A stretch of 57,531 nt of DNA, the filler included, from Sphacelaria rigidula (Eukaryota): the NCBI GenBank assembly GCA_964200075.2. It is 5 parts of 5 records of this genome, joined end to end, with 100 filler letters (N's around TTAATTAATTAA, not from the genome) between each part and the next. Parts side by side here need not be neighbours in the genome. Positions count along the whole stretch, not along the records: positions 1 to 11,432 come from CAXNAA020004930.1; 4 more parts are not named here. One strand, 5' to 3'. A program made the position numbers and the translations under genes. The stretch's first letter is position 1. Each line of letters begins with the position of its first letter. Below, in pieces: positions 1-56,735 of this stretch. Below the pieces are notes generated by a model, which had not been told where the DNA came from, did not search any database, and saw only the letters and a program-made list of their open reading frames with translations.

Positions 1-4
1 TGTG

Positions 5-75
5 GGGAAAGCACTGTTTTAGGCTTGAGCCTCATCTCGAAGTTAAACCTCAATTCTCACAATTTGTTGTTGTGC
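5..75 (+). repeat. Repeat at contig end (also 22884-22958 and 34418-34484, reverse orientation)
   Basis: gggaaagcactgttttaggcttgagcctcatctcgaagttaaacctcaattc matches the reverse complement of the ends of contigs 2 and 3. Confidence 0.85.
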
Positions 76-249
76 GTTGATCTCGCCAAAACCTTGACAC
101 GTGAGAACCATGGGACTGCCTGCGGGAAAGGTGGCAATGCTATTTGTATCTGAGATTCCTGCTGGATAATAATCCTTTCCCACGACTTTTCTTTTTCACG
201 ATTAGGTATGTGTGTGGGTTTTGCGCAAGACCTTTTCAACCGAAGCCAT

Positions 250-505
250 GTGGCAGAGGACTTTTTTTTGTCCCCCCTTCTTTTTGTCTTGTTCTGATAA
301 TGCCATTTTTGTTCTTGTTACTTCTTTTTCTTTGTTAACTCTATCTGTCCTACCTTTCCTCTCTGTTTGTTTGTTTTCCTTCACTTTTCTTCAGCGAGAG
401 TTTCCATTTTGTTTGTTTTACCTCGGGTACGTCCATCATGTGGGTAATGACCACAGCTGGATCATGACAACCTGGGGATCGGTGAAGTACGACAGTCAAT
501 CAAAA
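250..505 (+). mobile_element. LINE/SINE 3' end remnant
   Basis: T-rich tract followed by the conserved tail cctcgggtacgtccatcatg...gaccacagctggatc...gacagtcaatca. Confidence 0.7.
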
Positions 506-827
506 CCAGTTAACGGTAGAATTGCGTGCTGCCGTACCGTTGCGCAACTGAGGCCCGGCGATGTACTCGTCGACGTATACTGTTAGCTCACTATAAGATA
601 CGAAGTCTTGGAAAATAGAGATATTCCGCTTGTATTTCCCTCGAAAATGTCAAAGTGTGGTCATCGCTGCAAGTCGCACCGATCGTTGTGGCGAATCAGG
701 GCACCATAGTCAGTAGATGACTCGGGGCCTTGACCAGACTGGCCTTGCGTGCAATGCTTCCGGTACGAACCTCCCCTTTAGCCGCGTCTCTTCATCCATT
801 CTTTTTTATCCCATCTTCCTGTCACAG

Positions 828-953
828 GGGAAGTACGAGAAGGCGCTGCCGTTGTACTGTGAATGCTTGGCCATCAGGGAGAGGGCTTTAGGACCAGAAC
901 ACCCTGAGGTGGCGTCATCTCTATGCAACATCGGCTTGGTGTTTCGACTGCAG
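828..953 (+). CDS. TPR exon 1 GKYEKALPLYCECLAIRERALGPEHPEVASSLCNIGLVFRLQ
   Basis: cag|ggg...cag|gtggga, 126 bp. Confidence 0.92.
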
Positions 954-3900
954 GTGGGAGTTGCTCAGATCGTCTTTGTCGGCGTCCCCTATCCCTTTAG
1001 GCAGTAGGACGATCATCTCGTTGTCGGTTTGTAGACGTGTCGCCACTTTCATCTACAAGGGTGCAACAGTGAGGGAAAATGCTTCGACTACATGTTTCCG
1101 GAATGTGAAGAGCATTGGTTCGAGTTGTTGAAAATTTGCAGTGTGTGTGAGTTTTCTGTCGGCTGTTGTTCCTCGTCATTCGATATGTAGGCTTTTACCC
1201 ATGGGCAGGTCAGGCTTCTCGTGGAAAAAGTTTGCATGCCGAGATTCGTGCTGTTTACGGGTGGACAGCACAGACCATTCGCCAGCATGGTGTTTGTTAT
1301 CAGATGAGGTTCCAGTAGTGCGATGGAGTACAAAGGGTGACTTGGTGCCAAGAGCTCGACGTTCGTCCAGGGCAAAATGTTGTTGAAGGGTAGCGGACAG
1401 CGTTGCAATCCCTCGAGGGCACGAGGTGAAGCACGTTTGAGGAGAATGGTGCCGTCACCGAGCATTTGAGCCCCCTAAACCGACATTGCACTAATACGTG
1501 GTGCTGTCAGCTCTGTGGAGATTGTATTGCACACCGAAAGAGTTTCAACTCATTTTCTACCTCAGGATTTCAAATGGCACTGAACGTGCAGACATTGGTT
1601 GTGCTTCCCGATAACCCCCCGTGCTCCATGCTTCGTGATTGTGTTGCCGTTATGTCCTTGCAAGGGCCATTTCAAGAAAGCGGAGCCGTGGTTCAGGCAA
1701 TCCCTGGATGTCAGAGAGACGGCTTTAGGCCTGGATCACCCTTACGTTGCCGGCTCAACGGATGCCCTGGCTGCCCTGTGCGAGGTGCAGGTGAGGACTA
1801 GGCGGTTGCTTGCTGCTTGTGCCCACGTAAAGAAGAGCGAGCTTTACTTTTGCTGATGTCCGTTTTAGCCTAGAGACGTTCTGCAGACACTGTGGACTCT
1901 CAAACGTGCTATCCAGACCACACGCTTTTCTTAGCTTCCTTACAAAGAGAGTCCATCCTCGACATATTCGTAGCTGGTGGAATGACAGTCACTCGCATTG
2001 TCGGACCATTCTGCAGCCGCTGACTAACGAGAAATTGTGAGATTGGATCCATTTGCTACCTACGCAGCCCCGCTGTGTATCCTCGCAACTAGCTGCTACT
2101 ACCTTGAGTTGATACGCAGGTTTGTTGTGTGCTACCGCATGTTGTCCCCAAGTTCGGTTACCGGTGATTTGAGGGTCACGAAGTAGCTGTGGGAGCACAC
2201 ACTCAGGACGTGAGAAATTTCCAACGGCAAAGAGAACTCTTGAGAATCGATCTGTCGAACGATAGGGTCTGCCGGTAGGTAGCCTGTGTGCCCTACAACA
2301 TGCTACTCGTGCATGTGAAAAGATGCGTATCGCGAGCTACACGTGTCGCCGTTACTCCGTGATATAGATGAGCGGGGCCTCGTGAAATGATTTGAAGGCT
2401 CGACTTACAACACTGAAGAGACCATCTTAGGACAGAAAATTGTTGCTGTCGTAGTTCATTCGTGCATGGATAATGATCTTCATGCTCATCGTACTGCTTG
2501 CCGTTGGGTTCCATACAGGGTCGGTACGACGAAGCACTGCGACTTTATTATCAGTCCTTGTATTTGTGCGAGAGGGTGTTGGGGCCCGAGCATCCTGATG
2601 TGGCCAGTTCGCTGAAGAACATGGGGGGGCTTTTCCGACTGCAGGTATGCTTGAAACGATTGCTTTTGTAGGCGTTAGTACTGAACACGACGTGCGGGTA
2701 AAATTCCGAACACTATGTTCGGTTCAGGACCCCCGGGATGAGATCAAGTTCGCTGACATCGCTACCATGGGTGTGCCTGTGGATTGAGGTATTACGGTGT
2801 ATCGTATCGGAGTTGCTTCGTATAGTTGCGGTGAGATTGTACAACTTAATCGCGGCCCGTCTTCTTGTACGTCTTCCTGTACTCAGGGTAAGTACAAGGA
2901 AGCGCTGCCATTTCTCGAGCGATCCTTGTTCATCCGCGAGAAGGCCCTAGATCCTGAGCACCCTGATCTGACCACGTCACTGAATGACCTGACTGCGCTC
3001 TGGGACATACAGGTGAAGTGCTCTACGATCGTGTATTGATACAGCGTGACCACAGTTATTGTGGCTACTAACATGGGGTTGTTATTTTGAGGGGACTGCG
3101 TGTTTGCTCACAGGAGGTCATTTTTCGTTGCAATAGGTGCTGAAAGGTGCTGGAAGGTGCTGCAGGAAGGAACGAGAAAGGAGTGCGGTGCTTTTTTCTT
3201 CAATCCGATATCTTTGGTGGTGCACAACGATCTAAGCCGGGTTAAGGGCCCGCGTTGTTACGTACCGAATCAAGAAAAGGCTGTAATCGACTTGCCCTGG
3301 TGCCCGTGCCCTCAGGAGGTGCTAACTGAAAACAGTTGTCGTGATACTTTGCGGATCATCATGGTACCCGCCCCCTCCTCCCCTCCCCCGTCTTCCTCAC
3401 AGTCGAGGTGCAGAGCCGGTTTAAACGTATGTTTTGGCGATAATCTTGACGGTCGGCAGCGGCCAAAGGTGGTCTGTTGGTTCTGAGTGCCGACCTGTTT
3501 GTTGGACACTCGCACCCTATGCAATCCATAGGGAAAGTATGACGAGGCTCAGTCACTGTTCGAGCGTTCTCTGAGGATCCGGGAGGAGGCGTTGGGATCT
3601 GGGCACCCTGATGTCCGCACGTCGCTCGGCAACCTGGCGTCCTTACTCTTCACGAAGGTGCGCCCATAATAGCGTGCGTATGGTATGTGCAGAAAGCATT
3701 GGCACCCTTCTCGCTTACGTGTTAACGCATCGTCTATCAGCGGCTTGGTTGAGGGCAGACGTTGTTTTAGACTCAACATGTGGGGAAGGACCGCGCTTGT
3801 GACCACATCAGCAGGTGCGGAAGGCTTTTAGGTGGCAGCCGCGCCACGAGCACGTATGCTGGTGGATTGGGGCAGCGTCTGCGTAGAAGCAGTCACCTTT

Positions 3901-6900
3901 AGTGTCGTTCGTAAGTGCGTAGTTTAGTTGTTTGGCATGTATTGATGGATTCATTATTGTCGCACCTTAACTGACCCTCGAGGACTTCATCCGTGGTATC
4001 ACGATAGACGCACCTAAGGTAAACAAAACGTAAACACTACGTAAACGGAAGGGGGTAGGGTCAACAAAGAAGGATGGGATGGATACAGGAAGTCAAGATG
4101 AAAGGAGGCAGGTGAAATGAGAGGATAAAACAGGAAAAGCACCGAAATAAATCTTGTACCCGTCCCGATGAGATGATTAATAATACTACAATGTAATAGT
4201 CAGATGGAAGACAACGTAATGAATCATTCCAGGCGAGGAGGCAAAACAAGAAAATGAAAAGCAGAAACGAACCGAAAAAGGCCATGGACCCAGGGTTTCG
4301 CTCATCTTTCTGGTAATCCCACGAACTATATCAGAGCGAGACACAAACACTGCTCAAGCACAACAACACCAATATAAAACACCACGAGACAAATGGAGAA
4401 GATAACAGGGAAGGAAGCGCAGGAAAGAAAAAAACACAGAGAGAGCGGAAATAAGAATATGAAGACGAAATGGAACCCAAAGGCGAAGCAGAACGTGTAT
4501 AGAAATGCAGCTGTGGGACATCGCTAGAGTTACACGCCAAGGCAAAAGGTCAGCAATCGATAACAGGAAGCAAGGAGTAGATCAGTTTCCGTGTCCCCCC
4601 TGCCTCTCCTATACTCATCCCCAATCGGTTCAAAACAGGTAGCTATCTCGTTGTTTTGATCCTGTATTCCTCTCGAGCTGTCGCTGTTCTTATTGCGTCA
4701 CCAGTGGCGTTCCTTATGGCGGTTTTCAACGCATCAAGCAACGCAGCAGCCCCTTGCCTGCGTTCTAGGCCGAATTTACGTGTGTCTTCGCAAAGCCACA
4801 TCTGCTCGAACGTTTCCGCCGCTTTTTCGACCCCCAGGTGCCATGTGCCTACGTACTTTGCGGCAGTTACCAGGCCTTATGAGTCATTGATCTCCATACC
4901 GTAGACGAACAATGTCCTTTGTTCTCCCTTGCGTGAAACCATCCCTAGCGCACGCCGTCGGACTCTTTGATCACAAACGCTACATGGAGAGGGGGGTGGA
5001 GGTTAGGTGACAGAGACAATGACGTGTTTAGGATTAAGCTCACTTCGTGTGTGTTGTCAACGGCGTAGAAGCGGGCATTCAGTGCACCGCGATTCCCTCC
5101 CAAGGCAAGGAGGAGGGAATTAACCTTCCCGGCGCCTGTTTATCAACGGGTGAAAATTGTATGCTAAAGGTGGCAAGCAGGTAGCTCCTGTAGTGTCTCC
5201 CTTCATTGAACCACTTTGCCCGTCTCCCTTGCAGGGGCAATTCGACGACACCCTGCCGCTCTACGAACGATCTCTGGCCATCAGGGAGACAGCTTTAGGC
5301 CCTCGTCATCCAAAGGTTGCTACGTCCCTTGCCCACCTGGCGGGGTTGCTTCGCACGCAGGTACTGTCTTTCAGTCTTTGCTTTCGAAGATATGGACTCG
5401 AGACATACGTAAGAGCCGATCCGATGGTATCTTGCTCAAAATAGAGCCCTTTAGTCTCCATTGTTGGTCCCGACCGTAGCAGAGATCGTTTTGTACGAGA
5501 TCTGGTGGAGCTCCAACTCATCGTTGGCGGGATACCTTGTTCTGCACGTCGGCTCGTGGCTTGAGGCAACACCGCACGATACACGCAAGATATGTAAACG
5601 TTCACGAACTGCGCATGGGTATTGTTAGCAATAGCACATGTGTAGTTCATGTCAGCATGTGGTGGGTTCAACACCTTGAATACATGTCAGCGACAACCTC
5701 ATTTCTGTACATGTCCTCTGTGCGCAACCCTGGTGATGTGCTTGCTAGCGCATGACGCACGACAACGCTGATTCTGTTTGGTGTCGCACAGGAATTTCAT
5801 GGTGAAACGACTTTTAGTTCTAACTACCCGATGGGTTCGAATTGCCGACAAAAGCGATCGCTTCATTACGTGATTGCCGATTGTCTTTATGGGAAACAAA
5901 ATGCTGACTGTATTTTTCGTACAGGCCCGATACGACGAAGCGCTACCGATGGAGATCCGGTCTTTGTCGATTCGAGGGGATGTTTTGGGCCCCAAGCACA
6001 TTGATGTGGGTAACTCGTTCAACAGCTTGGGATTACTGTACATAGAGCAAGTGATCATCAACCACTGCTGTAGGTTAATGTGTTGTGTTGGAAATGGATG
6101 CGTTTTTCGGCAGCTGTGAGTATGAAGAGGGTATGCCAGAGCATTGGTCGCGTGCACGCGATGTATACGACTTTTTTCAATCGGCCACGGCTGGACGGTC
6201 GTAGACCAAAACAGAAGTCTCGAAATGGTTACTCTTGTTGCGTGGGATGACTCGTTTCGTTTTGCTTGTGATTAACAAATGGTCGTAGATGGTATTTTGG
6301 ACCAAGATATTTCGATTTTGCTCTCGTGCTTCTTGCCCTTGATTATATTCAGGAACGGTACGGGGGAGCACCGCCGTTGTTTGAACGATCTTTGTCTATT
6401 CGGGAAGAAGCTCTAGGGTCCGATCACGCCGACGTGGCCGCGTCGCTCAACAACCTGGCAGCGCTATGGGAGGCGCAGGTAGGTGACAGAAACAGTACGT
6501 GCGGGGTGTGTGTGTGGCTGTCAAGGACGGTGTTCTGTGGGGTGGTTGTGGAGATTCGTGTGCTGTCTGAGCTTCCGACAGCGTTGAGCAATCGACCTTG
6601 GCTTGACCCCTTCATGCACGGCTGTGGTGCCGGGATGCCTGATCCCTTTGTTCTCGACATCTCATATGCTTGATTCCTGTGTACTCAACATGTTTCATCT
6701 CGGCTCTACTCTCTTGGGTTCCTCGGTCAATTGGGGCGCAGTGTCCGATGTGTTGTAGGTGCGAAATATTTTGGCTTCGTACAAGCGAATCCCGGGGAGC
6801 ACACGCCTTCGACAAGTTTTTCCTGGCTCTAATTTGAAGTTTGACGTGGGAACTCACACCTGTTGGTATGCATTGTATGTATCGTACTCACAATCATGCC

Positions 6901-8842
6901 GGAAGTTTTTCTTCCCTGATTCGCTTCTGTGGTTGAGCTATTCGGACATTTGGTGTCCCTTGTATTATCGGTTATCATTCAATCCATCTGGATGTTGGCA
7001 ATCTGCCTCCGGGGACACACCGAAGAAGGACTCCAGTGCGGTCGTGCGTACCGTACGTACCAGCATGTCTGCAAAGATTTCAGGCTGAAACTTTAAAGGG
7101 TGAAAGGCAACGTTTCGAATGAAGGACTTCGCCTCAGAGCGATCTCCACCACACCTGCAACGGTCCAGCGGAGAAGTCTAAGGGAAGTATAAGTCGAGAC
7201 AGGGGACGAATCAGACGCCTAAACCGGATTTTAAGCCCTCCTGCTGCACTCAGTGGCCCAGGTTAGAAGAAATTATTACAATTGGAAACATTTATGTATT
7301 GGTCAAGTATACTGGAGGTAGTATGAGCAGTATCCGCCTTGTATTTGACGGTTTCTTTTCCATAGCGGATGTGGGTACTGTAGCATTTTGCAAAAGACAG
7401 CTGTGCGATTCGGGTCCAGGCGTTGTCTCCTACTGGTCCCAAGCGCCAAGTGGGTATGTGGTATGCAGTATCTACTATGCTTCGCGTACGTCACAAGAGA
7501 AGTAGCGGCGAAGTAATGTCATGCTTCTTCTTGGGACCAGCTCACGAGGTTGGGATACTGTTTCCGTCTCTAATACCTCTCAGTTGCTGGTATGTACGTT
7601 CCTGGAGGCCGTACAGGACGCCCTTGGGTGGAAGCCTCATGAGCGACTGGTACAATGCCGTGTTGCCACCTGGTTCAATACCATGCAGCTGTGCCGGTTC
7701 GAATCTCTGCCGATAGAGGCACGTGTCGCGAACTTGTTTTGCGTGGTATGGATGTGTTTCGAGGGGTATCACACTGGTGTGTCCGGTACCTTACGGTCGA
7801 TATGCTCTCACAGGGGGGGTACATGAAAGCGCTACCTCTCTACGCGTGGGCTTTGAAGATTTGGGAAGCGGCGCTTGGGCCTGATCACCTTGACGTGGCC
7901 TCGGGACTCAATAACATGGCGTTGATGCTGGAAGCACAAGTGAGAACCGTGCGTAGGTTTTCGTCCCCGACGAGAAAATCCATATTTTTCAAATTTTGCA
8001 TGGCGACGGACGTTGGTGGTACCTTGCATCTTGTTCTTTTGATTTTGACACGTTGACGCCATGTACTCGTCTACTATGTGTACACATCGCAATCGGAGAT
8101 GAACGGGAGGGAACCTAGTGACTTGGAAACGCATCCTCATTCAGAGATATTCCGGCAGCCCGCCGGTGGAAGGCGTGCGTGTTATGTGGACCTAACTTGC
8201 GTCGGCCGTCGTCTCCCCTACAGGAGAAGTACGAAGAAGCGCTTCCGTTGTACGAGCGGTCTCTGTTCATCAGGAAGAGTGTCCTAGGTTCCAATCATCC
8301 TGACGTGGCCGACTCGTTGAACAACCTGGCGGAATTACTTCGAGAGCACGCGAGATTTAGATAAGTATGAGGTCTGTCGGCATCTGCTCACCGGTTAGAT
8401 TTGAGGATTAAGCGTGTAGGGGCGTTGTTGTCAGGTGAGGCATACTTTTTGCGGCGAAGTTAGAGGGTGTTCGACTGTAACGACTGCTCTTGGCCTCGTC
8501 ACATAATCTGATGTTTTCCCCACGGGGGGGAGGGGAGGGGGGGTCGCTTTTCCACGGCTTCTATTGTAGTGCCTCTGCAACATATGGTGTTGCCTATTGG
8601 AGGGATTGTACAGCCAGAAAATTGAGCGATCACTCACGTGGTAGTTTCGGGTTGATGCTCGCGTCTGCCCTTGCCTTCAACCATGACTGTTTATCTCTAT
8701 CGTTGCTGTCGTCCAGGAGCGGTACGAAGAGGCACTCCCGCTTTTCGAACAATCCCTGCCTATTTTGGAGGATACGATGGGACCTCGTCATCCTGACCTC
8801 GCCATATCTCTTAACAACCTGGGATTTCTGTGGAAGGCACAG
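828..8842 (+). CDS. TPR-repeat region of a multi-exon gene (NB-ARC-TPR-type/kinesin-light-chain-like TPR), 11 x 126-bp exons; 5' part outside contig
   Basis: Eleven AG|126 nt|GT (one GC) phase-0 exons with consensus GxYxxALPLxExSLxIRExxLGxxHPDVAxSLxNLAxLxxxQ, all stop-free. No NB-ARC domain is visible in the contig. Confidence 0.9.
1665..1790 (+). CDS. TPR exon 2 GHFKKAEPWFRQSLDVRETALGLDHPYVAGSTDALAALCEVQ
   Basis: aag|ggc...cag|gtgagg, 126 bp. Confidence 0.88.
2519..2644 (+). CDS. TPR exon 3 GRYDEALRLYYQSLYLCERVLGPEHPDVASSLKNMGGLFRLQ
   Basis: cag|ggt...cag|gtatgc, 126 bp; absent from ORF track. Confidence 0.92.
2887..3012 (+). CDS. TPR exon 4 GKYKEALPFLERSLFIREKALDPEHPDLTTSLNDLTALWDIQ
   Basis: cag|ggt...cag|gtgaag, 126 bp. 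Confidence 0.92.
3532..3657 (+). CDS. TPR exon 5 GKYDEAQSLFERSLRIREEALGSGHPDVRTSLGNLASLLFTK
   Basis: tag|gga...aag|gtgcgc, 126 bp. Confidence 0.92.
3945..4975 (-). mobile_element. 5'-truncated RTE-like LINE (ORF C-terminus + 3'UTR) in a TPR intron
   Basis: Minus translation RRALGMVSRK..FVYGMEIND..LVTAAKYVGTWHLGVEKAAETFEQMW is homologous to the 39635 ORF; conserved 3' tail at 3945-4035. Confidence 0.8.
5235..5360 (+). CDS. TPR exon 6 GQFDDTLPLYERSLAIRETALGPRHPKVATSLAHLAGLLRTQ
   Basis: cag|ggg...cag|gtactg, 126 bp. Confidence 0.92.
5925..6050 (+). CDS. TPR exon 7 ARYDEALPMEIRSLSIRGDVLGPKHIDVGNSFNSLGLLYIEQ
   Basis: cag|gcc...caa|gtgatc (weak donor), 126 bp. Confidence 0.87.
6353..6478 (+). 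CDS. TPR exon 8 ERYGGAPPLFERSLSIREEALGSDHADVAASLNNLAALWEAQ
   Basis: cag|gaa...cag|gtaggt, 126 bp. Confidence 0.92.
7814..7939 (+). CDS. TPR exon 9 GGYMKALPLYAWALKIWEAALGPDHLDVASGLNNMALMLEAQ
   Basis: cag|ggg...caa|gtgaga, 126 bp. Confidence 0.9.
8224..8349 (+). CDS. TPR exon 10 EKYEEALPLYERSLFIRKSVLGSNHPDVADSLNNLAELLREH (GC donor)
   Basis: cag|gag...cac|gcgaga; read-through adds ARFR* (stop ends 8364). Confidence 0.85.
8717..8842 (+). CDS. TPR exon 11 ERYEEALPLFEQSLPILEDTMGPRHPDLAISLNNLGFLWKAQ
   Basis: cag|gag...cag|gtggcc, 126 bp. Confidence 0.92.
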
Positions 8843-9039
8843 GTGGCCTTTCTGTGAGGCGCTACTGTACGTGAGAGTCAGGGAAATATATAACTTCAAG
8901 ATCATGTCTATGGTGATTCATCGCATTCGTTTTCATGGTGGACATTAGATCGGAATGGTATGCCGCGACACATGTGTACTGTTCGAGCGCATCGTTGAAG
9001 AATCCGTATGTTTTTCTGCGATTTTTGTATGATACGTCT

Positions 9040-9600
9040 ATTCTCACAGAGCTGATGAATGCACTGATCGATCTAGCCGTGGCCACAAGATAGATGATAG
9101 ATGATAGATGTACCCAATATGAATGGACAGAGACACGCGCTTGACTAAACTCGAGTAGAAGAAAAACACAGAAGTACTAGGAAGAAGGGATAGGACAGGA
9201 GTAGATTGGCAGAGCATCGTAGCTACGAACAGTCCCGAGAGAGATCCCGATAGGTCTCTGGCAGGGCCCCACACAGGAGGTCGTACAAGAATCAAGGTCA
9301 TGAGAGCAGGTAGGGACTAACTTGTCCGAATGCCCCATGATTAGGCAGGAACTCTCGGCTACGGAATTAAGCGGAAAGAGGCAGAAGTACTAACCTAACA
9401 CATTAGGAAAAACAGAGGAGAAGCTGAGATAACAAAAAGAGGAAATCTCGAGGCAGAAGCCAACTTGATAAGGTAATGGCCGACAGGAAAGGACGGCAGT
9501 ATCGACGCGCATTTCCCCCACCCCTCTCATCCCTAGTCGGGGACAAAGCAATCCACTATGTTGGTGGTTCTTGGCGGGTTTTCGTCACCGTTGTTTTGTC
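9040..9600 (-). mobile_element. LINE 3'UTR remnant
   Basis: Reverse strand reads ttgggtacatctatc...gtggccacggctagatc, the same tail core; A/G-rich body on the plus strand. Confidence 0.6.
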
Positions 9601-9737
9601 AACGGAAGCAGTTCTCAGCGCAGCATCCCCTTGGTTGTGATGAAGAGTGGGTGATGAACATCTTGACATGGCCATATGCTCTCGCACTGCTCCACTCATT
9701 CTCGACCCGCTGATGCCATTTCACTCACTCTTAGCAG

Positions 9738-9815
9738 GAGCGCCCCAATCCTGTGTGCCTTGGAGCTGAATATTGGGAAGGAACGATATCTGTCGTTCCC
9801 GTACACGCGGAATAG
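9738..9815 (+). CDS. Possible terminal exon of TPR gene (ERPNPVCLGAEYWEGTISVVPVHAE*)
   Basis: Pyrimidine tract plus tagcag acceptor, phase 0, starts ER like exons 8 and 11; no homology support. Confidence 0.25.
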   Translation, partial: ERPNPVCLGAEYWEGTISVVPVHAE

Positions 9816-10944
9816 TCCCTGGGGGCACGTTTGTCCTCCTGTGCATGCTGTACACGAGTAGATATCACTTCCAGGACCGACCGTGTGAAATTCATCGTGT
9901 CTCTTGCGGCTTGCCATCTCTCATATCGCGTCTTTACCGTCAATGATCGTTCTCGTTATGCACCATGGCCCCACGAACAACGCCATCCCCGATTAGCGGG
10001 ATCGACAAGTGTGAAATGTTGTTTTCGCGCTGATTTTTCCCGCTTAATATCAAGGTAGCCGTCAGGTGTAACAGAGGCTGAATTGGCCCTAATCTCACTA
10101 CGAGTACATGACTGCAGTGCACTGTTCGTCATTGCTCGCACATAAACAGTCGACACTGGGTCAAGTATCGCGTGCGTAGTTTTTAGAAAGAGTTAAGAGT
10201 CTTCACGCGCTGTATCTAAACACTTCAGCTGATGCACGGTGTGTACAAACGTTTAGTGTTCTGAGCAGAGGGCCACAAGAGGCAGGGTAGCACGCGTGGT
10301 GTGTTGGTCGTGCGACGCGTGAGAAGAAATCCTACGACGTATGGGAACGAGAGTACATGCGTATAGATACATGTGTCACTGTAGGTACGTTGTGCGCCTC
10401 ACAGTAGTATTGCGTTTTGCAGCGACTTTTTTGGATTTCGAGTGCTTCACAGCTGCACGTAGTTTGCGATCCCGAGTGGACAGAGAGGCTAGAGTGGATA
10501 TTGTGGATATTGTGGTATTGTGGATATTCTGCCAGTGGAAAGCCGATCATGAAAAGGCAGCGAATACTCATCGCTGGTTTGTGGCGTGATGGGAGGATCA
10601 TGAACGCAAGTACTCTTTTACCCATACAGAACGACGAGTGGTTTGCTCCACAAGTATTGGATGCTGCCTCCGAAGAAAGAGTGCGCCGCAGGTAGTTGAT
10701 GAGCGCATAAGCGTGTCGTCCGACGTTGAACGCTTTCATTGGGGGGAGTCACAGATATTTGGGAGAGCTAACCTCGACTTGTGAAGCTTAGCCACTCCTT
10801 GACTCCTGTCACCAACCCAAACTTCTACATAATTTCAACCCACAAAGTGGAATCGCGACTTACACGCCATGTCCGTCTCTGGGCGTTTGGCCAGATGGGA
10901 ATGTTTATCCACCTCCCGCGAAGCACTCCGAACTTGGAAACGGA

Positions 10945-10948
<4 letters not shown>

Positions 10949-10985
<37 letters not shown>

Positions 10986-11032
10986 CACACACATATATAT
11001 ATATATATATATGGATGTACATATATATAGTC
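10949..11032. repeat. (CT)n/(CA)n/(AT)n compound microsatellite
   Basis: Seen directly. Confidence 0.95.
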
Positions 11033-11432
11033 TATATATGGATCCAAAGAGGTCAACAGCGCCGATTGTGGGGTTGGGAACTACACTTTCGGAGGCGTGC
11101 CGGCGCAGAGCTGATGCGACGCTTGATTTTGATGGAAACATTCGTGAATGTAATGCATATCCAGACAGTCCAAATTCGTGTGGCAACTATATGTCGCAGA
11201 GCCGTCGTGGCGCCTTTACGTGTCTGTACCTTCCCAAAGCTGCCCTCCCGCGTATGTCGCCAGTGGCAATGACGGTACTGAATTGGTATGAATCAGCACC
11301 AAACTCCACATTCTCTCCTAAACCGAACCTGGCCGTCCTCCAAACATGATCCTATAGAGGAAATGTACCAATTAAGATACAGAGCCAATTAAGATACAAG
11401 TGTTTTGAATCGTTCATATCTCCGCGAAATAT

Positions 11433-11532
11433 NNNNNNNNNNNNNNNNNNNNNNNNNNNNNNNNNNNNNNNNNNNNTTAATTAATTAANNNNNNNNNNNN
11501 NNNNNNNNNNNNNNNNNNNNNNNNNNNNNNNN
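11433..11532. other. Artificial contig linker (N44-TTAATTAATTAA-N44); also 22959-23058, 34485-34584, 46009-46108
   Basis: Identical 100-bp spacers carrying a six-frame stop; segment lengths 11432/11426/11426/11424/11423. Confidence 0.98.
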
Positions 11533-11812: not shown

Positions 11813-12092
11813 GACTATCTTCCGAGACACAACATACGGGCGGGCGCAGCTTCAAGAACAGCCGAGACCCTGTGATGTCACTCAGTTCTACAACCCCCGG
11901 CGAACCTTCAAGTGACGGAGGAGGTGCGACAACTACCTCACGCAAGTCAAACTCGCGCACGCCACCGACCGCCGGGCATCCTCTAGACGTCACCGCGACC
12001 CCAGCCGTTTCCATCAACGCTCCCGCTCCTGCCGACGACGACAGCGATTCCTCGGAAGGCGGCTGGCTCGACCAACCCCTACCCAGCAGCAG

Positions 12093-12124
<32 letters not shown>

Positions 12125-14472
12125 ATACGGCGTCTGTGGGACTTCCAGGCAACGCTACATGGAGGGGAGCAGTCGCTGGACGGGGGTCCGGGATCAATGC
12201 ACCCGTCGGGGTAGCCGCCGGTGCTGGAGCTGGCGGTCGGGGAATGTCCGGAGCCGCGAGCCCCGCTCCGGCGCGACGGTTGCGTGGGCGCGAGGTGGCG
12301 CATGTGCGGGTGCCCACGACGTTGCGGCATCGCATGCAGAGGCTACCTGGTCATGGTGCCGCGGTGGTCCGGCAGTGGGAGCAGGGGCTGACGAAACAGG
12401 TAGCCATATGTGTCTGCATGTGTGTATGCGGGAGTGTGTGTGGCATCATGTTCATGCTTGCTGCAGGCAATGGGTTTGATCAGTGGCTACTGAACTGTGA
12501 CTCGTGCATCTTGTCAAAGATTTCAGGCGCGTAGGTGATTATGGTGATGGGGATAAGGATGATGACGGTGGAGTTGACGTGCTGTGAGCGCTTATGGTTG
12601 ATGTACTGAGTGTGCATTTTGGGCGCTGTGTGCGATTTTGACGGGGCGATGTAGCACTCACCGCTCCCCTACTGAAGCTTGCTCTCAAACGTGGAAGAAA
12701 ATTGCGACAATGTAAACCTCGAGAGTTGAGGTATCTGTTGTTTGCGGTACCCGAAATGCTCAAAGTCAACTCGCAGTAGTAGCGACATGAGTTGTTGTAA
12801 TATAGAGCGTTGAAATATCTCTTCATGTGGTATCCAACACGGCCCGAACGCACGTCAAGTTTTCCCTTTCCCTGATCTACTCAATGCCAATATTTCACAC
12901 ACCCCACGGTGCACGTGACATAACGTAGGAGCGGCTGTTGGAAGGGCGAATGTTTTTCTCGTGCTCCAAAGGGTACCCGTTAATGGTTTCGTCGGTTCTC
13001 CACTACCAGCCAGAAGAAGAGGAAGCGAGGCGGGCACGGCAAAAGTGGATCGACGAGCGAGGAGCCGAAGCCTTCCAAATCCCCCAGAGGTGCGAAACCG
13101 ATAGCGCCCCCCTTCATCGTGAAGAAGCGGCTTTTGCGGCGACTCAACATGTTCTGGCAATTCACACTCATTCCCTTCTCCTTACCCTTCCTTTCGTTTT
13201 GCTTTGTTTCGTCTCTGATTATTGGTGCGGTTTACTCCGTTCGTTCTATCCTCGATCCTCGACCCCTTCCCCCTTCTGGAGAGTCTTCCAGGGAGTGCTG
13301 CCGTTTTGTTAACCTCGGGTCGGTTCATCTCGTGACCACGGCTGGATCCCTTCGGAACCAGTTCATGGGTGGAAGTCGATCAATCAATCAATCAACAGAT
13401 GAAGAACAAACGTTTTCCTCCCTCCAACGAAGCGATCATATCGACGGGAAAAAAATCACGCAAATCACACTCAGACACATAATCCACGAAATGTTGTAGA
13501 GAGCCAGCCCTCTGTGATGTAGTCACAACCGAAAAAATATATATATGCCGCCTCCACAAAACGAATTCAGCCTCCCGTCTCCTCTGCGGCTCGCCCCCTC
13601 CCTCGAGAGTGCGACTATATCGTTTTAACAGCCATGATAGGCAAGACATGGCACACTCCCGCCCCTCCCTCGGCGTCGGTGATTAACTGCGAGCCAGCTC
13701 CAGCGAAAACCCGGTGTGCTCCTTCCCGGCTTGGTAAGGATGCGAGCTCAATGACCCTACGTCTACGGCATGCAAGTTTATAAGCACACCGTGTCCTTGT
13801 TCCGCGTCATTTTGCCAACCCACACACTACAGAGATTGGCGAGGATACAGCTACGCTCATCTCCTACGCCCTTTACAGCACCGGCGAAGCGGTGCAAGTG
13901 GCGGCGGAATAGGCACGAACGGTAACTTAGCAGCCACAACCGCCGCTGCCGCTGCCGCCGAGCTCGGCATGGGCGGTGCCGGCACGACAGTAAGTGGTAC
14001 CGTCGGTGGCATCTCGGGACCTTCGGGGACCGGTGTGTCGGGCGGCGGGACCACGGCTATCCTCGATTGTAGCGATGGAGAGGGGGGTGGGGTGAGCGGG
14101 GGGGATGGGAGCTGCGGGCGGGATGCTGACGGACCAGATACACTCCAATACCGGGCCGGGTTCTTGGATGATCCAGCATTGACGCTGGGGAAGCACCGGC
14201 ATATGACTCGGGGTGATCAAAATACTGGACCTGTGGTGAGCGCGCGTGTTGTGTTGCATGTTTTGTTTGAGAGACAGTGGGAGAGGCAGAAGGAGAGGCA
14301 GAAGGAGCAGCGCGCGTACGCGCTGCTCTTGGTTTTGACGCATTGTGTGCGTGATGGCCGTCCACATCCCCCGAGATATCATTGCGGTTTTTGTCTCTGC
14401 TCAACTTCTTGGTTGATTTGATCGAGTTGAGGGTCTTGGAGTCTGGGGGTCAAAACGAGTATCCTCCAGGAG

Positions 14473-18849: not shown

Positions 18850-19670
18850 GAAGGTAGCGCCTGGATATATGGACCTGGTTCTTCACAGTTGAAGAAATGC
18901 GGGTAATTTACCGATAAAAAACGGTGGTTTCAGTCGTTTGACCCCCTGGTAGGAGAGCAAACCCTACTAACTCGAAGATATGTTCAAAGCGCTAAGAGCA
19001 GCGCGGGTCGTATATGCTGAAGCCATCGACAGTACAGTCTGGACCAAACAAGCTTCAATTACTGAGACACGCTGCCCGAAGGTAGTATCGAAACAGGAGA
19101 CGATCAAACCGACCAACATCAAACAGTGTCGTTCAGCTCTTGGTACGATAAAGATTAGCTTTGTATTAAATTGCTACCGGACTTGGGGGAGTAATTTTGC
19201 CGTTGGTGAATCTTACAAGAAGAGTCAGCCGAGAAAATGGTGAAAAACGTTGGAAACCTAAACATGACCCAGCCTTCGCAAGACTCAAACGGCTTTTGAT
19301 TAACACTCTGGCATTACACTTGCTAGATTTTTTTCAAGAATTCACCATCCAAGTACATGCTAAGGAAGGGTGCCGGCACGATGCTGCAATCATAGCATAT
19401 TTCAGCCAACGCTTCAACCATGCCCAACGGCATTACTCTGCTGTAAAATACTCGAGAATGACATGCGGTTGTACTAGCAGTACACCAATACACCCCTTTC
19501 TGTGGGGTCGACATTCTATACTTCTTTGAAAGGTCATGCCGCAGAGAGATATCTTTATGAGATGCAGGGCACACAGCAACATGTTGGTCATGTCGGCGAC
19601 AGCACTTTACGACTTCACAGTGCAGCACAAACCGGAAAGTTAAACGACATGTCGGACACTCTGGTCAAAA
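18850..19670 (+). mobile_element. Degenerate Ty3/Gypsy pol (RT end/RNase H) fragment
   Basis: KPTNIKQCRSALG, WKPKHDPAFARLKRLL..LHLLDF..EFTIQV, IAYFSQRFNHAQRHYSA, PFLWGRH; frameshifted. Confidence 0.8.
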
Positions 19671-22740: not shown

Positions 22741-24019
22741 GGTAGAGTCAACGAGGAATTTACATCATTTGTTATTCTTGCAAGGTACAAGCGCTACACC
22801 ACTTGACGCACTTCACAGCTTCACTCGTCAACATCCAAAATTGGCGTGTTATTTGCACTTCAAGAGAGTGTACATAATGCCGATTCACCAAATAGCAACA
22901 AATTGTGCGAATTGAGGTTTAACTCCGAGATGATGTTCAAGCCTAAAACAGTGCTTTCNNNNNNNNNNNNNNNNNNNNNNNNNNNNNNNNNNNNNNNNNN
23001 NNTTAATTAATTAANNNNNNNNNNNNNNNNNNNNNNNNNNNNNNNNNNNNNNNNNNNNGATGACAGCCTCCAATGAGTTGCTCTTTTTTCTAGTATCACC
23101 TCTTCCCGAAACAGCCACAGCTTATACACTGCCTCATGGGTGCCTGGAGGGGGGGGTGTACTCGTGATCTTGCATACAGTAGCCATATGACCTACCACTG
23201 ACATATGGCGGGGGGAATGATGAGAGAAGTTGGTTGCAAATTATCCAGAACCGGCTTGTTGTCGAATTCTGTTCGTGGCAATGACAACACCACTTCAACT
23301 TTTCCTGCCTTGAAAGGAAGGGGATCACGGTGGTCGCGGAAATATACTGATAACACCTTTGTGTTTCTGGGGACTGGTCAACCGCTGAAAACCTTTCCTA
23401 TCAACACTGACTGTGGCAGCACGCCGGTGGTGTCCTGAGGCAAGAACGGTGGCCCAGTGTGTGTCGAATATTTTCCTTTTCTGCTCTCAGTCAAAACGTC
23501 CCATGACACTGCACAAACTTTCCATCTATCTGTTTTTACATACTACTAGCAGGAGTTGCTCAGCTACATACATCCTGTTTTCATGTCGCGTATCCGCACT
23601 CTGAAGTCAGTAGACGCCGTGCAGTAGGTCGGCGTTCATCTTCATAGGTGGCATGTTATCTCGAACTCCAGTGTCTAGGAAAACATATCTTCACACTGAT
23701 ATTTACGTGCGAGAAAGGGAAGGATACGAATGTATGATTCGCCAACACTCTATTGCCCCGGGTGAATGTTTCCCGCTCACATCCGAACCACCATGGCTTA
23801 TTGCTTATCGATCAAGGTGTAGCTCGAGGCCAATTTTATGAAGACTTCACAAACGAAGTTCTGCTCAACATCAACCAGAGCAACCGATACTACATAAGGT
23901 GCCCTTCCGGCAGATGCTGCTAGATGGTAGAGCTTTGCGCTAGAAATTAATCATGGTTTACCATTATCAAGGTTGTGAGGCTGAAACGCTCAGGACATTG
24001 TCTGTCTAGAGTCATGGTA

Positions 24020-24486: not shown

Positions 24487-27400
24487 CGGCGGTATTGAGC
24501 GATCGAAAACCCAGTGGCGGCGGCTGTTTCTCGTAGAGATCCTCAAGTTCTCCGCGGGCACGCCCACACAGGGCACGCTTTCCCCTTCGCTTGTCTCGCA
24601 GCAGTTTTCCAGTTGCCACGGCAACAAGAGCGGAGAGTATCTGCAGGCTCTCGTCGCCTCGGAGGACATGGAACACCTGCACAATCGCATCACCATACAC
24701 GTGAAACTTGGACAATAGGTACGTGTCTCGCAGTAAGTCATACCGTAAGAACGCCGGATATCCCGCACAAGTGGATGAATATTACACATCCTGGACAATG
24801 TAATCCCTTGTCCAGGGTGTGAGATAGAAATACGGCTTGCAGGATTTGGGGGGGGAAAGTGAATATGCGTCCAATGCTTTTAGGTTTTTATCAATGGAAA
24901 AACTTGAGACGTCGTTATATATAATGTATCTTCCCAAGTCATCAATATGACGTTTTAGCATACATTCACTGTTTTTCATCTTGTCGTCTTACGATGGCTA
25001 CATTGAGCTAAACGCAGTTCCCTCTACCTCTACCTCAAACAAGATTCGCATATCCGGTCTTCCTGGGCGGTACACGCGCGGCTCTCATACTCCCCCTCCT
25101 CGCACTCCGTACACGCCTCACAGGTTCGATCAGAGCCTGCTTCGCACGCTTCGACCTCCCGGGTTCCGAAGGGGCAGGGTGTGCAACCTGTTCCGTACGC
25201 CGTTCCTTCTTTAGACAAACGCCAACGGTACGGTCTCCGTTTTTTTCGAGGGGAAACAATTTGAAAACAAAATAAAAAAACTTGGTCTGTATGAGATCGT
25301 TTTTTCCGGGGGGGGGGATTTGAAAGACAAAAAAACTTCGTCGGTGTGATATCTTGACAATCTAGGCTGTCGTACGATTAAGTTTCTTCAGTATGCCCAG
25401 ATTTTCCAACACCAACGCTGGGCATTTCTGCAAAGGGCTACACGTATTGTTGGACAGGCAAAATTTATCAATGAGTTCCAGCGCGGGAACACTCGAGCAA
25501 CTACGGCACAAACAGAGGGTTTTGAACCACGTCGCTTGATTCAACAGAGTACCGTAGCCTGAGTCACGCCCAGTTGAGAACGCCAAACCCCAGGAGACCA
25601 TGACATATCCGGCACCATGAATATGCTTCTCGATCAAAGAGGCACAGTAGCACTCACGATGGCAATCGAGGTCCGTCTCCGCGGTACAAGGAGATAGAGC
25701 AAACGTGTCCCCTCCCAGGCACGCCTCCGCACAAGATGTGCATGTCGCGTCATACAGATCCGTACAAGGCTCCGATCGGAATGTGCCATTGCCGCATGGT
25801 TGGCAATCTGTTCGCCGGATTTGGTGCACGACGGAAACGGGGAGACAATATAATGCATGCCCGATAGCGATAGTGTTATTTGATTACATACGAGTGGGCA
25901 ATACACTTACACAGTTTCAATATTTTCGAACTTGAGCCGCCATCGCATGCTTTTAAACACATCATTTCGGCAAGACCATTACCGGTGCTCCGATGTGGAC
26001 AATTCAATAGAAAAAGGCGAGAACTTCATGAAGTAAGTGCTGTACGAGCTATGGGGATTTTGGTGCCTTGACAGTCAGTCTGCGTGACGGCATTCGCCGC
26101 CAGTGGTGTGCATGTTTCATCGATCCACGCCGTAGATCCATAATCATGTATTTATATTACACAATTGGATGGTGCTTGTTTTTTCTCCGATCCATAGCAA
26201 ACTGCACCGCGCATGTACCCTTACATGAAACCTACTACTGGTACCAGTATCGCGTATTCAATTGCTCGAAAATAAAATAGTAGATCGGCCGGGTGGTTAG
26301 CCCCTTGACTGCAAAACAGGTCATTTGCGTCACAATAATGTGCCACTGGGGGTCTTCCACTACTTGAACGTATATTTTATTCGTGCAACAAGAGTCTGTC
26401 GGGAGAAGATTTTCGGACACCGAGGGCCTACCCCCCCTCCCGGGGGGCCATTGTCATGACTTTTTATTTGTATTGTTGACGTTGTTGAAGGAATCGATCG
26501 AGAAACACTGACATAAACCGAAGAGCCTGGCGGGTTTCGCGAGGTTCATATATTTGCTTCTGTTTATTGCCCGCTCTGTCCCGATGACCTCGGATGCCAA
26601 CCACGCTCACACACATGCATGCACACAAGCGCACGGTAGCAACAGCCTGCAGCCAAAGCAGTAGCATTATCTCACGCCTCGCCAAACTTGCCCGGGCTAC
26701 TAATAGGTACTCGAGGCACACGACACGTAACATGATTCAATAAATGTAATCATGGTAGCTGATAAGCTGTGGGGGGCGGCGTGTCCGGCATCTCATCCGC
26801 TTCCATGCCAAGGATCTCTGTACACGGTAGCTGACCGCATCCGCCAACGCCTCGAAAATAAACCATGGGACAGTAGGCAGGATGCCCCCCCCTTTCAAAA
26901 ACTCGGATTTTTTATCTTGGGGTCTACGTGCCCAGGAATCATTTTTGACAGGCCCTCGCGTGCAAGTATGGTAGTTGTTGTCAATTCGGGACACTGCTCA
27001 ATACCCGCGCGCCAGACTCTTCCACTAACACTATATTCGTGAGATGCAGAGTGTAGTTTCAGATTCAGAGTCAGGATTTCAAACGGAAGAACTGTTTTGT
27101 TTATGGTCGATTCGTATGCGAAACAGTTCGCGTCACTAATCCTCCAACATTGGAGGCTGTGGAAAACGGATTTCAAACGGAAGAACTGTTTTCTTAGTGG
27201 TCGATTCTTATGGAAAACAGCTCGCGTCATTAATCAACCAATCCGAGTAATTAACGTGCGTGTTTTCACAGCCTCCAATGTTGGTGCATTAGTGACGCGA
27301 AGTGTTTCGCATATGAATCGACCACAAACAAAACAGTTCTTCCGTTTGAAATCCTGACTCTGAATCTGAAACTAAACTCTGAATCTCACGAATATAGTGT

Positions 27401-33765: not shown

Positions 33766-35428
33766 GAATCATGCAGATACACAATTTCGCACCCTTTTCT
33801 GCTGGTGTCACCCCGAAGCCCCCTCTGCCTCGGGGCGATTCTGTGATATGGATCGATCCATCTCTGCCCTTGCGTGGTATTGTGTATCGAGAACTACATC
33901 GGAACTACTATCGCGCAGGTCATGGACTTTCGTAGAATCGCCGACGTTCCTCCCACCTGTGTTCACTATTAACGCACTCTCGGACAAGTGGTGGCTAGAA
34001 TATCCACAAAGTTGCGGGCACTAGCGAAAGAGCCCGGACGTTCCGCCTGCTTGGCAACATGTATCACGATCCTCCCTGCCTTTGATCTCCAATTGGTGTG
34101 ACGTGCCGACGACCATGCTCGAAGAATATCCACCAGGACGGCCGATCGAGGTGAGTGAAAAAGTACGGGAAGGAAAGTACGGCGAAGAGTCACGCTACGG
34201 TAGGCGGACATTTGGGCTCAAAACTTTTTTCTCATTCAGGGGTTCCCAAAGTTCGGAGCTACACCAGAATATGGATCAGGTAATTCCCAACAATTTGGAC
34301 CTCTGAAGATAACCGTGCACCCCTGAGAGGTGCTACGTACGGTAGGGGTGGGGTGCACAAATATTTTTTGAGGTTAGAATTGTTAGGAGCCCTTTTTATC
34401 TCATCCAAAACACGACTTAACAACAAATTGTGCGAATTGAGGTTTAACTTCGAGATGAGGCTCAAGCCTAAAACAGTGCTTCCCNNNNNNNNNNNNNNNN
34501 NNNNNNNNNNNNNNNNNNNNNNNNNNNNTTAATTAATTAANNNNNNNNNNNNNNNNNNNNNNNNNNNNNNNNNNNNNNNNNNNNGGATGTCTGACACACT
34601 TATGAGCCTCGTTTTTCGTGCAACCAAATACCACCCCCCCCTATCGTAGGATGACTCTGGGCGCGTGACTATGCATGCCTTCCATCGTGAGTATGTTACT
34701 ATCACTATAACTATTTCCCCTCAGAGTGCATGCCGGATGACTCCCGGGTACACAATAGTTACTCTTTGATTCGTGCGAGATGATAGATTCGATGACAAAG
34801 TCATGGAGATTGTCCCCCTTCGGTGCGTGTGAGATGAATGTAAGGATGAATATGACACCCTTCGAAAAACGCCACTGAATAGATACATGTAAGTCACTAT
34901 TTGCTTCATGCGGGGTGTAGAAGGAGTATGTATTTTCAATCAGTCATCACGCGTACATGAACCATAACCCGTATATGCTTTCCAATTCTCGGTCGCATTA
35001 CACAACGCAGTCGAGGAAAGATGTCCAGCTCGTTACTCGTGCATGACCTTGAGTATACAACTGCATACCTGCAAACCTCCGTGACTTTACGGATGACCCA
35101 AACGTTCACGACTTGTCCTCGAAGGTTCATCGGGAGTCAACTCGTATAAATATTGGTTTGTCCTAACCGTGCATAATTTCTGCTTTTCCTGAGTAGCTTG
35201 AATATCTAGGCTAAAATTGTTGACTTCTTGTAGACAGCATTCTTGCGTTCTTTTCATTTGCTGCATCTACCGTACATGCTACAGAAGGAAGCGTGAGAGA
35301 TCTTTGTTCGATCTCTGTTAGTCGCAAGTGGGAGTGCATAATGTTATCTTTTGCGCAAGTGTTTTTTGCATCAAAATATTCCTCCTGTGGGTTACTTTCC
35401 TTTCAGATGACTTTCCATTGAGGGGGAA

Positions 35429-36720: not shown

Positions 36721-37383
36721 TCACCCGCCCTTGGATGCACTATGAATAGTGTGTTGTTCAAGTCGGTGATACACCGAAGTATATTCCGCGGTCACTACTC
36801 CGTCATTTTTCCATCTAATTGGAGCTTTCACCCTGGCTCTACGCACTGCGAACTGCGGACGCACTCCATATTCAACAACCGCGCCAAACGTCGAAACTGG
36901 GCGAAAAATGATGAATGCAAATGCGCGCTCGCTTTTTCTTTCCTCCATACCAAACAAGGTATAAGTCGGTAGCAGGACCATTTTTTTCTTATTGTCGGCT
37001 ACACAACCAACTATACTCTCCAGACACCTAAACGCCAAAGCAATAGACTTCCAAAGCTTGTAGAAAACACTGGATATGATGAGAGCTGATTTCTTGTCGA
37101 CCAAACGTCTCCATTTCCCGTACTTGAACACGTAGGCTTGGAGGGATGGGTTGTATGGGAAGTCTAAGGGATCCGCTACCTTCGCGGGTAACTCTGCTTG
37201 CCCGCTCTCTCCACTCTTGGTAGAGGGCACTGGGGCGGCCACTGGTGCAGCAGCCGCCGCCGTAGCGGATACAGATACGGACGGTTCGGCAGAAACGTCG
37301 ACCGCAGACTTTGCGCTACCGCCCTTTACAAAGCCGAAAGTCTGAACGCGGCTCATATTGCAGATCGGTGTGGTTCGCAGCAA
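36721..37383 (-). pseudogene. Orphan intronless ORF between poly-C tracts, probably TE-derived
   Basis: 220-aa ORF with Ala/Pro/Ser linker, then PLDFPYNPSLQAYVFKYGKW..FRCLESIVGC; no family recognised. Confidence 0.35.
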
Positions 37384-56344: not shown

Positions 56345-56432
<88 letters not shown>

Positions 56433-56735
56433 ACATTTCGCAAACACGGCACACACCCTTGTGCTGACCCCGTCGCTGGAGAGGAGGATGGCTTTTGTAG
56501 AGAGACTCGTGAGCAAGTAACGTGAACGTAAAAAAAAGCACACGCGAGCATGTTGTTTACCCAACGACTTCCGCGACGATTCGCATTTCTGCTAGAAATC
56601 AAGTGTATGTGCGTGTGTGTGTTTCTCAAAAGGCGCCGCCAGCAAGAGATCGGGGCGACGGACCAGACCCTGCTGGACGCCGAAGCACTCCTGTCGTTCG
56701 TGAAGATGCAAGATGGCTTGCTTAACGAGAATCAG
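53919..56735 (+). CDS. BK/Slo-type Ca-activated K+ channel, RCK2-region exons 53919-54265, 55388-55511, 56158-56252, 56633-56735 (possible extra exon 53570-53666)
   Basis: LEGHVVVLG..LECFLRPL, VFLIQGSCVNHADLENAGIRTAQSIIVM and DQTLLDAEALL follow the Slo RCK2 motif order; splice phases are compatible. Confidence 0.8.
56344..56432. repeat. (GTT)n microsatellite
   Basis: Seen directly. Confidence 0.97.

Follow-up and report, generated by a model that had tools for sequence, protein, structure and literature searches.

A window of 57,531 nt of DNA from the brown alga Sphacelaria rigidula (Phaeophyceae, Sphacelariales) contains, close to its start, an array of exons that each encode one tetratricopeptide repeat (TPR). 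This locus is probably the repeat arm of a germline-encoded gene of the brown-algal family in which every kinesin light chain-type (KLC-type) TPR occupies its own 126-nt, phase-0 exon, and the array is likely to be read colinearly and not to be undergoing shuffling now. A brown-alga host is itself a feature of that family. We infer that the product binds a ligand or a partner and that the gene belongs to the NB-ARC (STAND) branch. The window, by which is meant the whole stretch analysed, is made of five pieces of about 11.4 kb each, joined by linkers of the form N44-TTAATTAATTAA-N44; the pieces are similar in size and each has the appearance of an entire small contig from a brown-alga assembly, and the array lies in the first of them (1-11432). 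An original prediction made from the sequence had taken the array for the binding library of a combinatorial immune receptor, an interpretation that restates a hypothesis already in print (Zambounis et al. 2012).

Eleven units of 126 bp each were found on the plus strand (Table 1) and, as had been predicted, every one is an open frame of 42 codons with no stop and no indel. Only the columns L14 and H25 are invariant across the eleven units and position 30 shows the residues S,G,S,T,T,T,N,A,S,D,I, both in agreement with the original prediction. The Pfam families TPR_12 and TPR_10 both match all eleven units with E <= 0.01 (best 1.8e-11 and 3.3e-10, respectively), the bit scores, shown for unit 1 alone, being 38.8 against a curated cut-off of 30.1 for TPR_12 and 35.5 against 27.5 for TPR_10, and TPR_NPHP3 matches ten of the eleven. 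A search of the window in all six frames, continued through stop codons, with a profile of the units gave these eleven as its only full-length matches, a result far beyond chance, and the sole additional match was one of 13 residues at -1.2 bits on the minus strand; no decayed copies of a unit were detected by this search in the introns, on the minus strand or in the other pieces. A pyrimidine tract and AG precede all eleven units and GT follows ten, the exception being unit 10, which is followed by GC (CAC/GC). In the canonical TPR numbering, unit positions 32, 35, 36, 39, 6, 10 and 13 correspond to positions 4, 7, 8, 11, 20, 24 and 27, and by this mapping of the canonical signature each exon encodes one TPR's helix B, the GxxHP loop and the helix A that belongs to the following TPR. 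Given that, among solved structures, the TPR domains of kinesin light chains come closest (PDB 7ai4, 3nf1, 3zfw and others; profile E from 7e-57, the best, to 7e-47), the repeat is assigned to the 42-residue KLC type, with which it shares the pattern G-x-Y-x-x-A ... L-G-x-x-H-P-x-V-A-x-x-L-N-N-L-A.

The use of these units could be followed in contigs from three sequencing runs of one study (X6, X7 and X8), the records of which only guess that the material is RNA. The reason for treating them as RNA is that GT..AG joints are present in their contigs but not in the contig of a DNA run (X4) belonging to another study and labelled algae metagenome. The contigs of X6-X8 are identical to the window, and nine joints (Table 1), each present in all three runs, splice units 1-6, 8 and 9 at exactly the predicted borders. 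The chain 1-2-3-4-5-6-7(short)-8-9-10 is the only one in the contigs of X6, X7 and X8, and none of the 15 joints listed for these runs skips or reorders a unit. All joints fall between codons and the joined frame is open from 717 to 8364, over 446 codons. With a length of 126 nt, phase 0 and joints between codons, a unit can be gained or lost in frame, as the original prediction had argued.

The expectation of eleven 126-bp, phase-0 exons holds for the DNA but not entirely for the RNA contigs, in which unit 7 is used as 81 nt and unit 11 is not translated. In unit 7 an internal donor (GAT/gtgggt, at 6005/6006) is joined to unit 8 by a GT..AG joint, and the half of the unit that encodes helix A is skipped. 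After unit 10 the splice at 8349, where the donor reads CAC/gcgaga, is absent: the RNA contigs run unbroken from 8224 to 10638 in X6, 10489 in X7 and 10602 in X8. Given this lack of a splice after unit 10, unit 11 sits in the 3' untranslated region (3'UTR) and is either stranded or seldom used as an exon; the frame past it would meet a stop after four codons (VAFL, stop). The layout of one TPR per 126-nt exon is thus represented in RNA by eight units at exact borders, one shortened unit and one unit fused to the terminal exon, and the exons are symmetric and of phase 0. Unspliced contigs of low depth (2-6x) from X6-X8 also lie over parts of introns 6 to 9 (5570-5849, 6056-6231, 6450-7840 and 7911-8253); none lie over introns 1-4, and intron 5 has two short pieces, 3862-4078 (X7) and 4657-4807 (X6). 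This distribution points to RNA not yet fully spliced in its 3' part, or else to residual DNA.

These observations bear directly on the combinatorial interpretation, in which symmetric exons would be skipped, repeated or recombined, through regulated splicing or somatic recombination, to produce many binding surfaces. The uniform length and phase of the units, any subset of which would remain in frame, is what such a cassette receptor would require, and there are two departures from a simple chain, the internal donor of unit 7 and an intact unit 11 behind a GC donor. Furthermore, the evidence on joints covers only the 15 listed and not a further five, and alternative splicing of repeat exons is reported, in the account given in PMC11378527, for brown-alga ROCO genes. 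Nevertheless, a cassette receptor is highly improbable for four reasons: first, a single chain is present in each of the three RNA runs. Second, a contig of 8040 nt from the X4 DNA run, about 1.2% diverged from the window (94 substitutions and two single-base gaps), is colinear with it over 422-8545 and carries the units in the same order, which points to no structural variation at the locus. Third, the units are neither near-identical to one another nor copied into introns or onto the minus strand, and the introns are unrelated. Fourth, the positions that vary are those that vary in TPRs generally. As far as contigs can show, there is one isoform and a conserved exon order, the very outcome that the original prediction had named as fatal to it. 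Arthropod Dscam exon arrays and the assembly of lamprey VLRs, named in PMC11378527 and PMC3341825, are combinatorial cassette systems, and the present array resembles them in its tandem, equal-length, in-frame modules encoding a binding surface; it differs in that neither mutually exclusive or variable exon use nor somatic rearrangement is seen, the RNA contigs containing one colinear product.

The third of these reasons depends on the age of the units. Pairs of units share on average 47% of amino acids and 57% of nucleotides, with a maximum of 65% of nucleotides, and adjacent pairs are hardly closer than distant ones (57.5% vs 56.8% of nucleotides). Synonymous sites are saturated, the mean proportion of synonymous differences (pS) being 0.68 and reaching at least 0.75 in 11 of the 55 unit pairs, and for this reason dN/dS among units was dropped as a test. 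The units are old copies, with no sign in their sequences of recent duplication, conversion or inverted copying. The introns had been described as invaded by transposable elements, a description that was not borne out: a comparison of intron with intron found no similarity or repeats common to them, the only match of an intron to another piece is weak (4805-4954, 69%), and the depth of X4 is flat over the introns, at about 31, apart from one outlying bin (3821-4202) at 81, the high-copy repeats lying instead at 1-382 and 11079-11432.

With regard to the fourth reason, the positions listed as variable in the original prediction do vary, but the list was incomplete, positions 19 and 24 having a higher entropy than position 33; ranked by variability, the leading columns are 15, 19, 30, 41, 24, 37, 40, 4, 39, 11, 33 and 2. 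In the canonical TPR numbering, unit positions 30, 33, 37, 40, 41 and 19 are positions 2, 5, 9, 12, 13 and 33, which are given by Magliery and Regan (PMC1261162) as the most variable in TPRs in general and as lying on the concave, ligand-binding face. Five bacterial TPR_12 proteins behave similarly: among their eight most variable positions, 37 and 40 occur in all five, 41 in four and 30 in three. The ratio of nonsynonymous to synonymous differences (pN/pS) is 0.96 at the five concave positions, compared with 0.37 in the framework, so that the predicted excess of nonsynonymous change at surface positions did not materialize, in units whose synonymous sites are saturated. Judged by sequence comparison, the concave positions appear to be unconstrained and not demonstrably selected, and their variability fits a binding groove but is not an immune signature.

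RNA is also seen directly 5' of unit 1. Contigs of X6 and X7 run unspliced from 515 to 951 into unit 1; X8 has a separate contig at 520-854, and its main spliced contig begins at 825, right beside the acceptor, possibly the mark of a branch. The transcribed sequence contains an in-frame TAG (714-716) followed by ATG 717, which has T at -3, earlier ATGs at 560 and 647, and a pyrimidine tract with a CAG acceptor (780-827). A protein begun at ATG 717 would have 446 residues, of which 37 form a leader and the rest 9.6 units; a search of the protein collection with the leader gave no match, which is weak evidence.

This raises the possibility of a stand-alone, TPR-only gene or a 5'-truncated receptor derivative with its own start near 515, the product of which would be an adaptor or decoy without a nucleotide switch. 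The RNA contigs do end at 515 (X6 and X7) and 520 (X8), about 95 nt from the boundary of a repeat at 422, and continue unspliced into unit 1; the stop lies directly before ATG 717, from which the frame is open to 8364; and TPR-only proteins of the same repeat type exist in brown algae (P0002; P0073, partial). However, this explanation is unlikely, given that ATG 717 is a poor start in view of the two upstream ATGs and the T at -3, that the supposed leader is a translated pyrimidine tract and acceptor with no match in the protein collection, and that the break of the main X8 contig at the acceptor hints at a second path from upstream. Some unspliced RNA is moreover present in X6-X8, as the low-depth contigs over introns 6 to 9 indicate. 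Finally, unit 1 opens with a helix B that lacks its partner helix A and stands behind an intact acceptor, which suggests that an exon lies, or until recently lay, further upstream. That an NB-ARC-type part is encoded 5' of the contig is held possible, at somewhat short of an even chance; the existence of a TPR-only product of 446 residues, started near 515 and translated from ATG 717, is judged tentatively and to the same degree, and the two forms may coexist. Brown-alga proteins of the same repeat type in the collection include examples with NB-ARC in front (P0005 and P0029), with TIR and NB-ARC (P0063) and with neither (P0002; P0073, partial).

It is also conceivable that the gene has no link to immunity and encodes a housekeeping scaffold that carries KLC-type TPRs, for example a kinesin light chain or a nephrocystin-3-like protein. 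Among solved structures it matches kinesin light chains 1 and 2 best, and TPR_NPHP3 matches all units except one. A kinesin light chain consists of an N-terminal heptad-repeat region, which binds the kinesin heavy chain, followed by six TPRs, whereas at least ten units are used in RNA here. Furthermore, the match is to a generic 42-residue repeat that is equally common to bacterial proteins, the divergence between two haplotypes is the same in exons as in introns, unlike that of a conserved housekeeping gene, and the layout of one repeat per exon is a hallmark of the brown-algal family. Taken together, these points make a housekeeping scaffold extremely improbable.

The preferred placement, in the brown-algal family with one KLC-type TPR per exon, draws on known gene structures. 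In Ectocarpus, 24 NB-ARC-TPR genes are described by Zambounis et al. (2012, PMC3341825), 13 of which have a TPR domain built of 126-nt, 42-residue exons (124 exons), together with shorter TPR-like exons of 102 nt and with exons that lie inactivated on the coding strand; exon shuffling, and even somatic recombination, is the hypothesis advanced in that account. The assignment made in the original prediction to an Ectocarpus NB-ARC-TPR-like family with one repeat per exon stands, as the layout is that given in PMC3341825 and the host is a brown alga. The likeness extends to the 126-nt, phase-0 exons, the 34-residue TPR with its linker and the TPR_12 type, to a shortened exon, comparable to unit 7, and to an exon inactivated on the coding strand by loss of a splice site, comparable to unit 11. 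In contrast, the short exon here is of 81 nt and not 102, the host belongs to the Sphacelariales and not the Ectocarpales, and the contig ends before any NB-ARC. Nor are signs of recent duplication or shuffling seen: there are no local duplicates and no pseudo-exons or unit copies in introns, and only unit 11 resembles an inactivated exon.

Brown-alga ROCO genes (LRR-ROC-COR, LRR being the leucine-rich repeat) are a second point of comparison. They likewise have one repeat per symmetric exon, with diversification proposed to occur by exon shuffling and alternative splicing (PMC3341825; PMC11378527), but the exons are LRR exons of 72 nt, 24 residues and phase 2, and the intact copies on the non-coding strand and the several splice variants reported in PMC11378527 have no counterpart among the contigs seen here. 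ROCO and NB-ARC-TPR orthogroups are both described as expanded in a preprint on brown-alga genomes. A third comparison is with bacterial CHAT-TPR and other TPR_12 arrays (P0004, P0006 and P0102 among them), which share 60-72% identity per unit with the present array and are alike in varying at positions 30, 37, 40 and 41; they differ in that their genes are intronless and in that their repeat pairs have a mean identity of 65-82%, compared with 47% here, in a list chosen for high total score. Alternative splicing of NB-ARC-TPR genes is reportedly, by its title, the subject of an article by Teng et al. of 2023 (Plant J 114:246).

Several observations weigh against a colinear receptor arm of the NB-ARC branch. 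No NB-ARC or other N-terminal domain is present in the TPR contig, which begins 827 nt upstream of unit 1, as the original prediction had noted for NB-ARC. No such domain was seen either in the window's 150 longest open frames, taken for a Pfam scan from 296 frames of at least 75 residues that passed a composition filter, the other pieces being unrelated contigs. The form seen in X6 and X7, unspliced from 515, cannot carry an upstream domain in frame because of the stop at 714-716. With respect to the family, the similarity per unit to bacterial TPR_12 proteins (60-72%) is as high as that to algal proteins, and it is consequently the gene structure and the host, and not a tree, that carry the placement; a comparison with five brown-alga or eukprot proteins found no orthologue colinear with the array. 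No protein exceeds 73% identity to any unit among the best 120 by total score, a comparison that is uninformative given that these are mostly long bacterial arrays and that a native protein of ten units would score just below them. With respect to constraint, the differences between X4 and the window up to position 3941 number 6 in the 630 nt of units 1-5 and 29 in about 2806 nt of non-coding sequence, a similar rate, and of the six exonic differences four change the amino acid (K5E, L23R and T32M in unit 2, R29G in unit 5), all of these lying outside canonical positions 2, 5, 9, 12 and 13. These numbers are small, and they would be compatible with weak constraint; the gene could be decaying. 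With respect to colinearity, minor isoforms may exist, since contigs lose rare variants, the joints listed are only 15 and X6-X8 all come from one study. Between the window and the X4 contig there is also an indel polymorphism in intron 1, where 84 nt (1059-1142) are missing from X4.

On the colinear reading, the encoding of helix B, loop and helix A by each exon lets evolution add or remove units without disturbing the frame, and the array would be read constitutively and colinearly from unit 1 to unit 10. The copies are ancient and the changes still visible are losses only, namely that of the helix-A half of unit 7, through the internal donor, and that of unit 11, through the dead donor after unit 10. 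A more elaborate scenario, that two products are made, a full receptor from upstream exons and a TPR-only decoy or regulator from about 515, with the unit 7 donor and the GC donor serving as regulated switches of the groove or of the C-terminal cap, for example on infection, is considered quite unlikely; if true, it would amount to a small, controlled form of the cassette idea.

The boundaries of the TPR contig are repetitive. Its first 421 nt, where the assembly ends, belong to a high-copy repeat, with an X4 depth of about 393,000 in the bin 1-382 compared with about 31 across the gene, and many different loose ends are present at 24-73, the single-copy X4 contig beginning at 422. A sequence of about 65 nt is common to three pieces, that at 6-71 recurring with 94-97% identity where pieces 2 and 3 end (22896-22958 and 34419-34484). 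The assembly of piece 1 thus broke in a repeat, 827 nt upstream of TPR unit 1. A second high-copy repeat, with an X4 depth of about 16,000, occupies 11079-11432. The contig-end repeat was also found in RNA-like contigs. Microsatellites, (CT)17 and an (AT) tract, lie at 10949-11039, just past the 3'UTR of the TPR gene.

Elsewhere in the window, an exon on the plus strand of piece 2 (12929-13089) is 100% identical to a partial Sphacelaria rigidula protein (P0121; NCBI name), the next matches being to Ectocarpus species at 83%, which identifies the host as a brown alga; the gene to which it belongs has neighbouring exons to about 14200, and its Ectocarpus homologues (936-941 residues) have a cyclin N-terminal domain (PF00134). 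The Pfam scan of open frames returned matches only to TPR, TNFR_c6, RT_RNaseH_2 and a TFIIA. Cysteine-rich open frames on the minus strand (25030-25883) match TNFR_c6, the TNFR/NGFR cysteine-rich repeat (E 5e-10), and probably represent an exon from a gene for a secreted or membrane protein, and a fragment of a retrotransposon polyprotein lies on the plus strand at 19170-19529 (RT_RNaseH_2, E 3e-08). An open frame of 211 codons starting with ATG on the minus strand (36724-37356) has no Pfam family and no usable ESM Atlas match. Long homopolymeric codon runs of the CAA/CAG and ACN types are present in pieces 2 and 5 (12060-12120; 56330-56450). Rfam and tRNA scans of the whole window gave no match.

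Table 1. Positions of the TPR units, of their use in RNA and of associated features, counted along the whole window.
Feature	Position	Strand	Remarks
High-copy repeat, contig start	1-421	not assigned	outside the gene model; assembly ends there
Transcribed stretch directly 5' of unit 1	515-827	+	5'UTR and 37-codon leader, or retained intron end
TPR unit 1	828-953	+	TPR_12 E 1e-09; joint 953/1665, GT..AG in X6, X7 and X8; used in RNA
TPR unit 2	1665-1790	+	joints 953/1665, 1790/2519; used in RNA; most aberrant unit, profile 63.1 bits
TPR unit 3	2519-2644	+	joints 1790/2519, 2644/2887; used in RNA
TPR unit 4	2887-3012	+	joints 2644/2887, 3012/3532; used in RNA
TPR unit 5	3532-3657	+	joints 3012/3532, 3657/5235; used in RNA
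TPR unit 6	5235-5360	+	joints 3657/5235, 5360/5925; used in RNA
TPR unit 7, extent in DNA	5925-6050	+	RNA uses 5925-6005 only
TPR unit 7 as used in RNA	5925-6005	+	81 nt, 27 codons, in frame; one contig each in X6, X7 and X8
TPR unit 7, remainder	6006-6050	+	15 codons; open in DNA, spliced out of RNA contigs
TPR unit 8	6353-6478	+	joints 6005/6353, 6478/7814; used in RNA
TPR unit 9	7814-7939	+	joints 6478/7814, 7939/8224; used in RNA
TPR unit 10, extent in DNA	8224-8349	+	RNA reads through to stop at 8362-8364
TPR unit 10 and read-through, last coding stretch	8224-8364	+	four codons (ARFR) past 8349, stop 8362-8364
3'UTR, at least 2.2 kb	8365-10638	+	unbroken RNA contigs; 3' limits are contig ends, not mapped poly(A) sites
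TPR unit 11	8717-8842	+	intact, 71.8 bits, AG/GT flanks; within 3'UTR, unspliced in contigs seen
Linkers	11433-11532, 22959-23058, 34485-34584, 46009-46108		

Two cautions follow for repeat arrays of this kind. High variability at TPR positions 2, 5, 9, 12 and 13 is a generic property of TPRs and is alone no immune signature, and repeat 'exons' that look intact need RNA evidence before they are counted, given that one of the eleven here lies in a 3'UTR and another is used in part. The combinatorial reading, if true, would bear on the question raised in 2012 of somatic or splicing diversification of brown-alga receptors; the data for this locus point the other way, to an array that is fixed, colinear and encoded in the germline and whose units are slowly being lost. 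The locus also indicates that the layout of one TPR per exon occurs outside the Ectocarpales, in the Sphacelariales.

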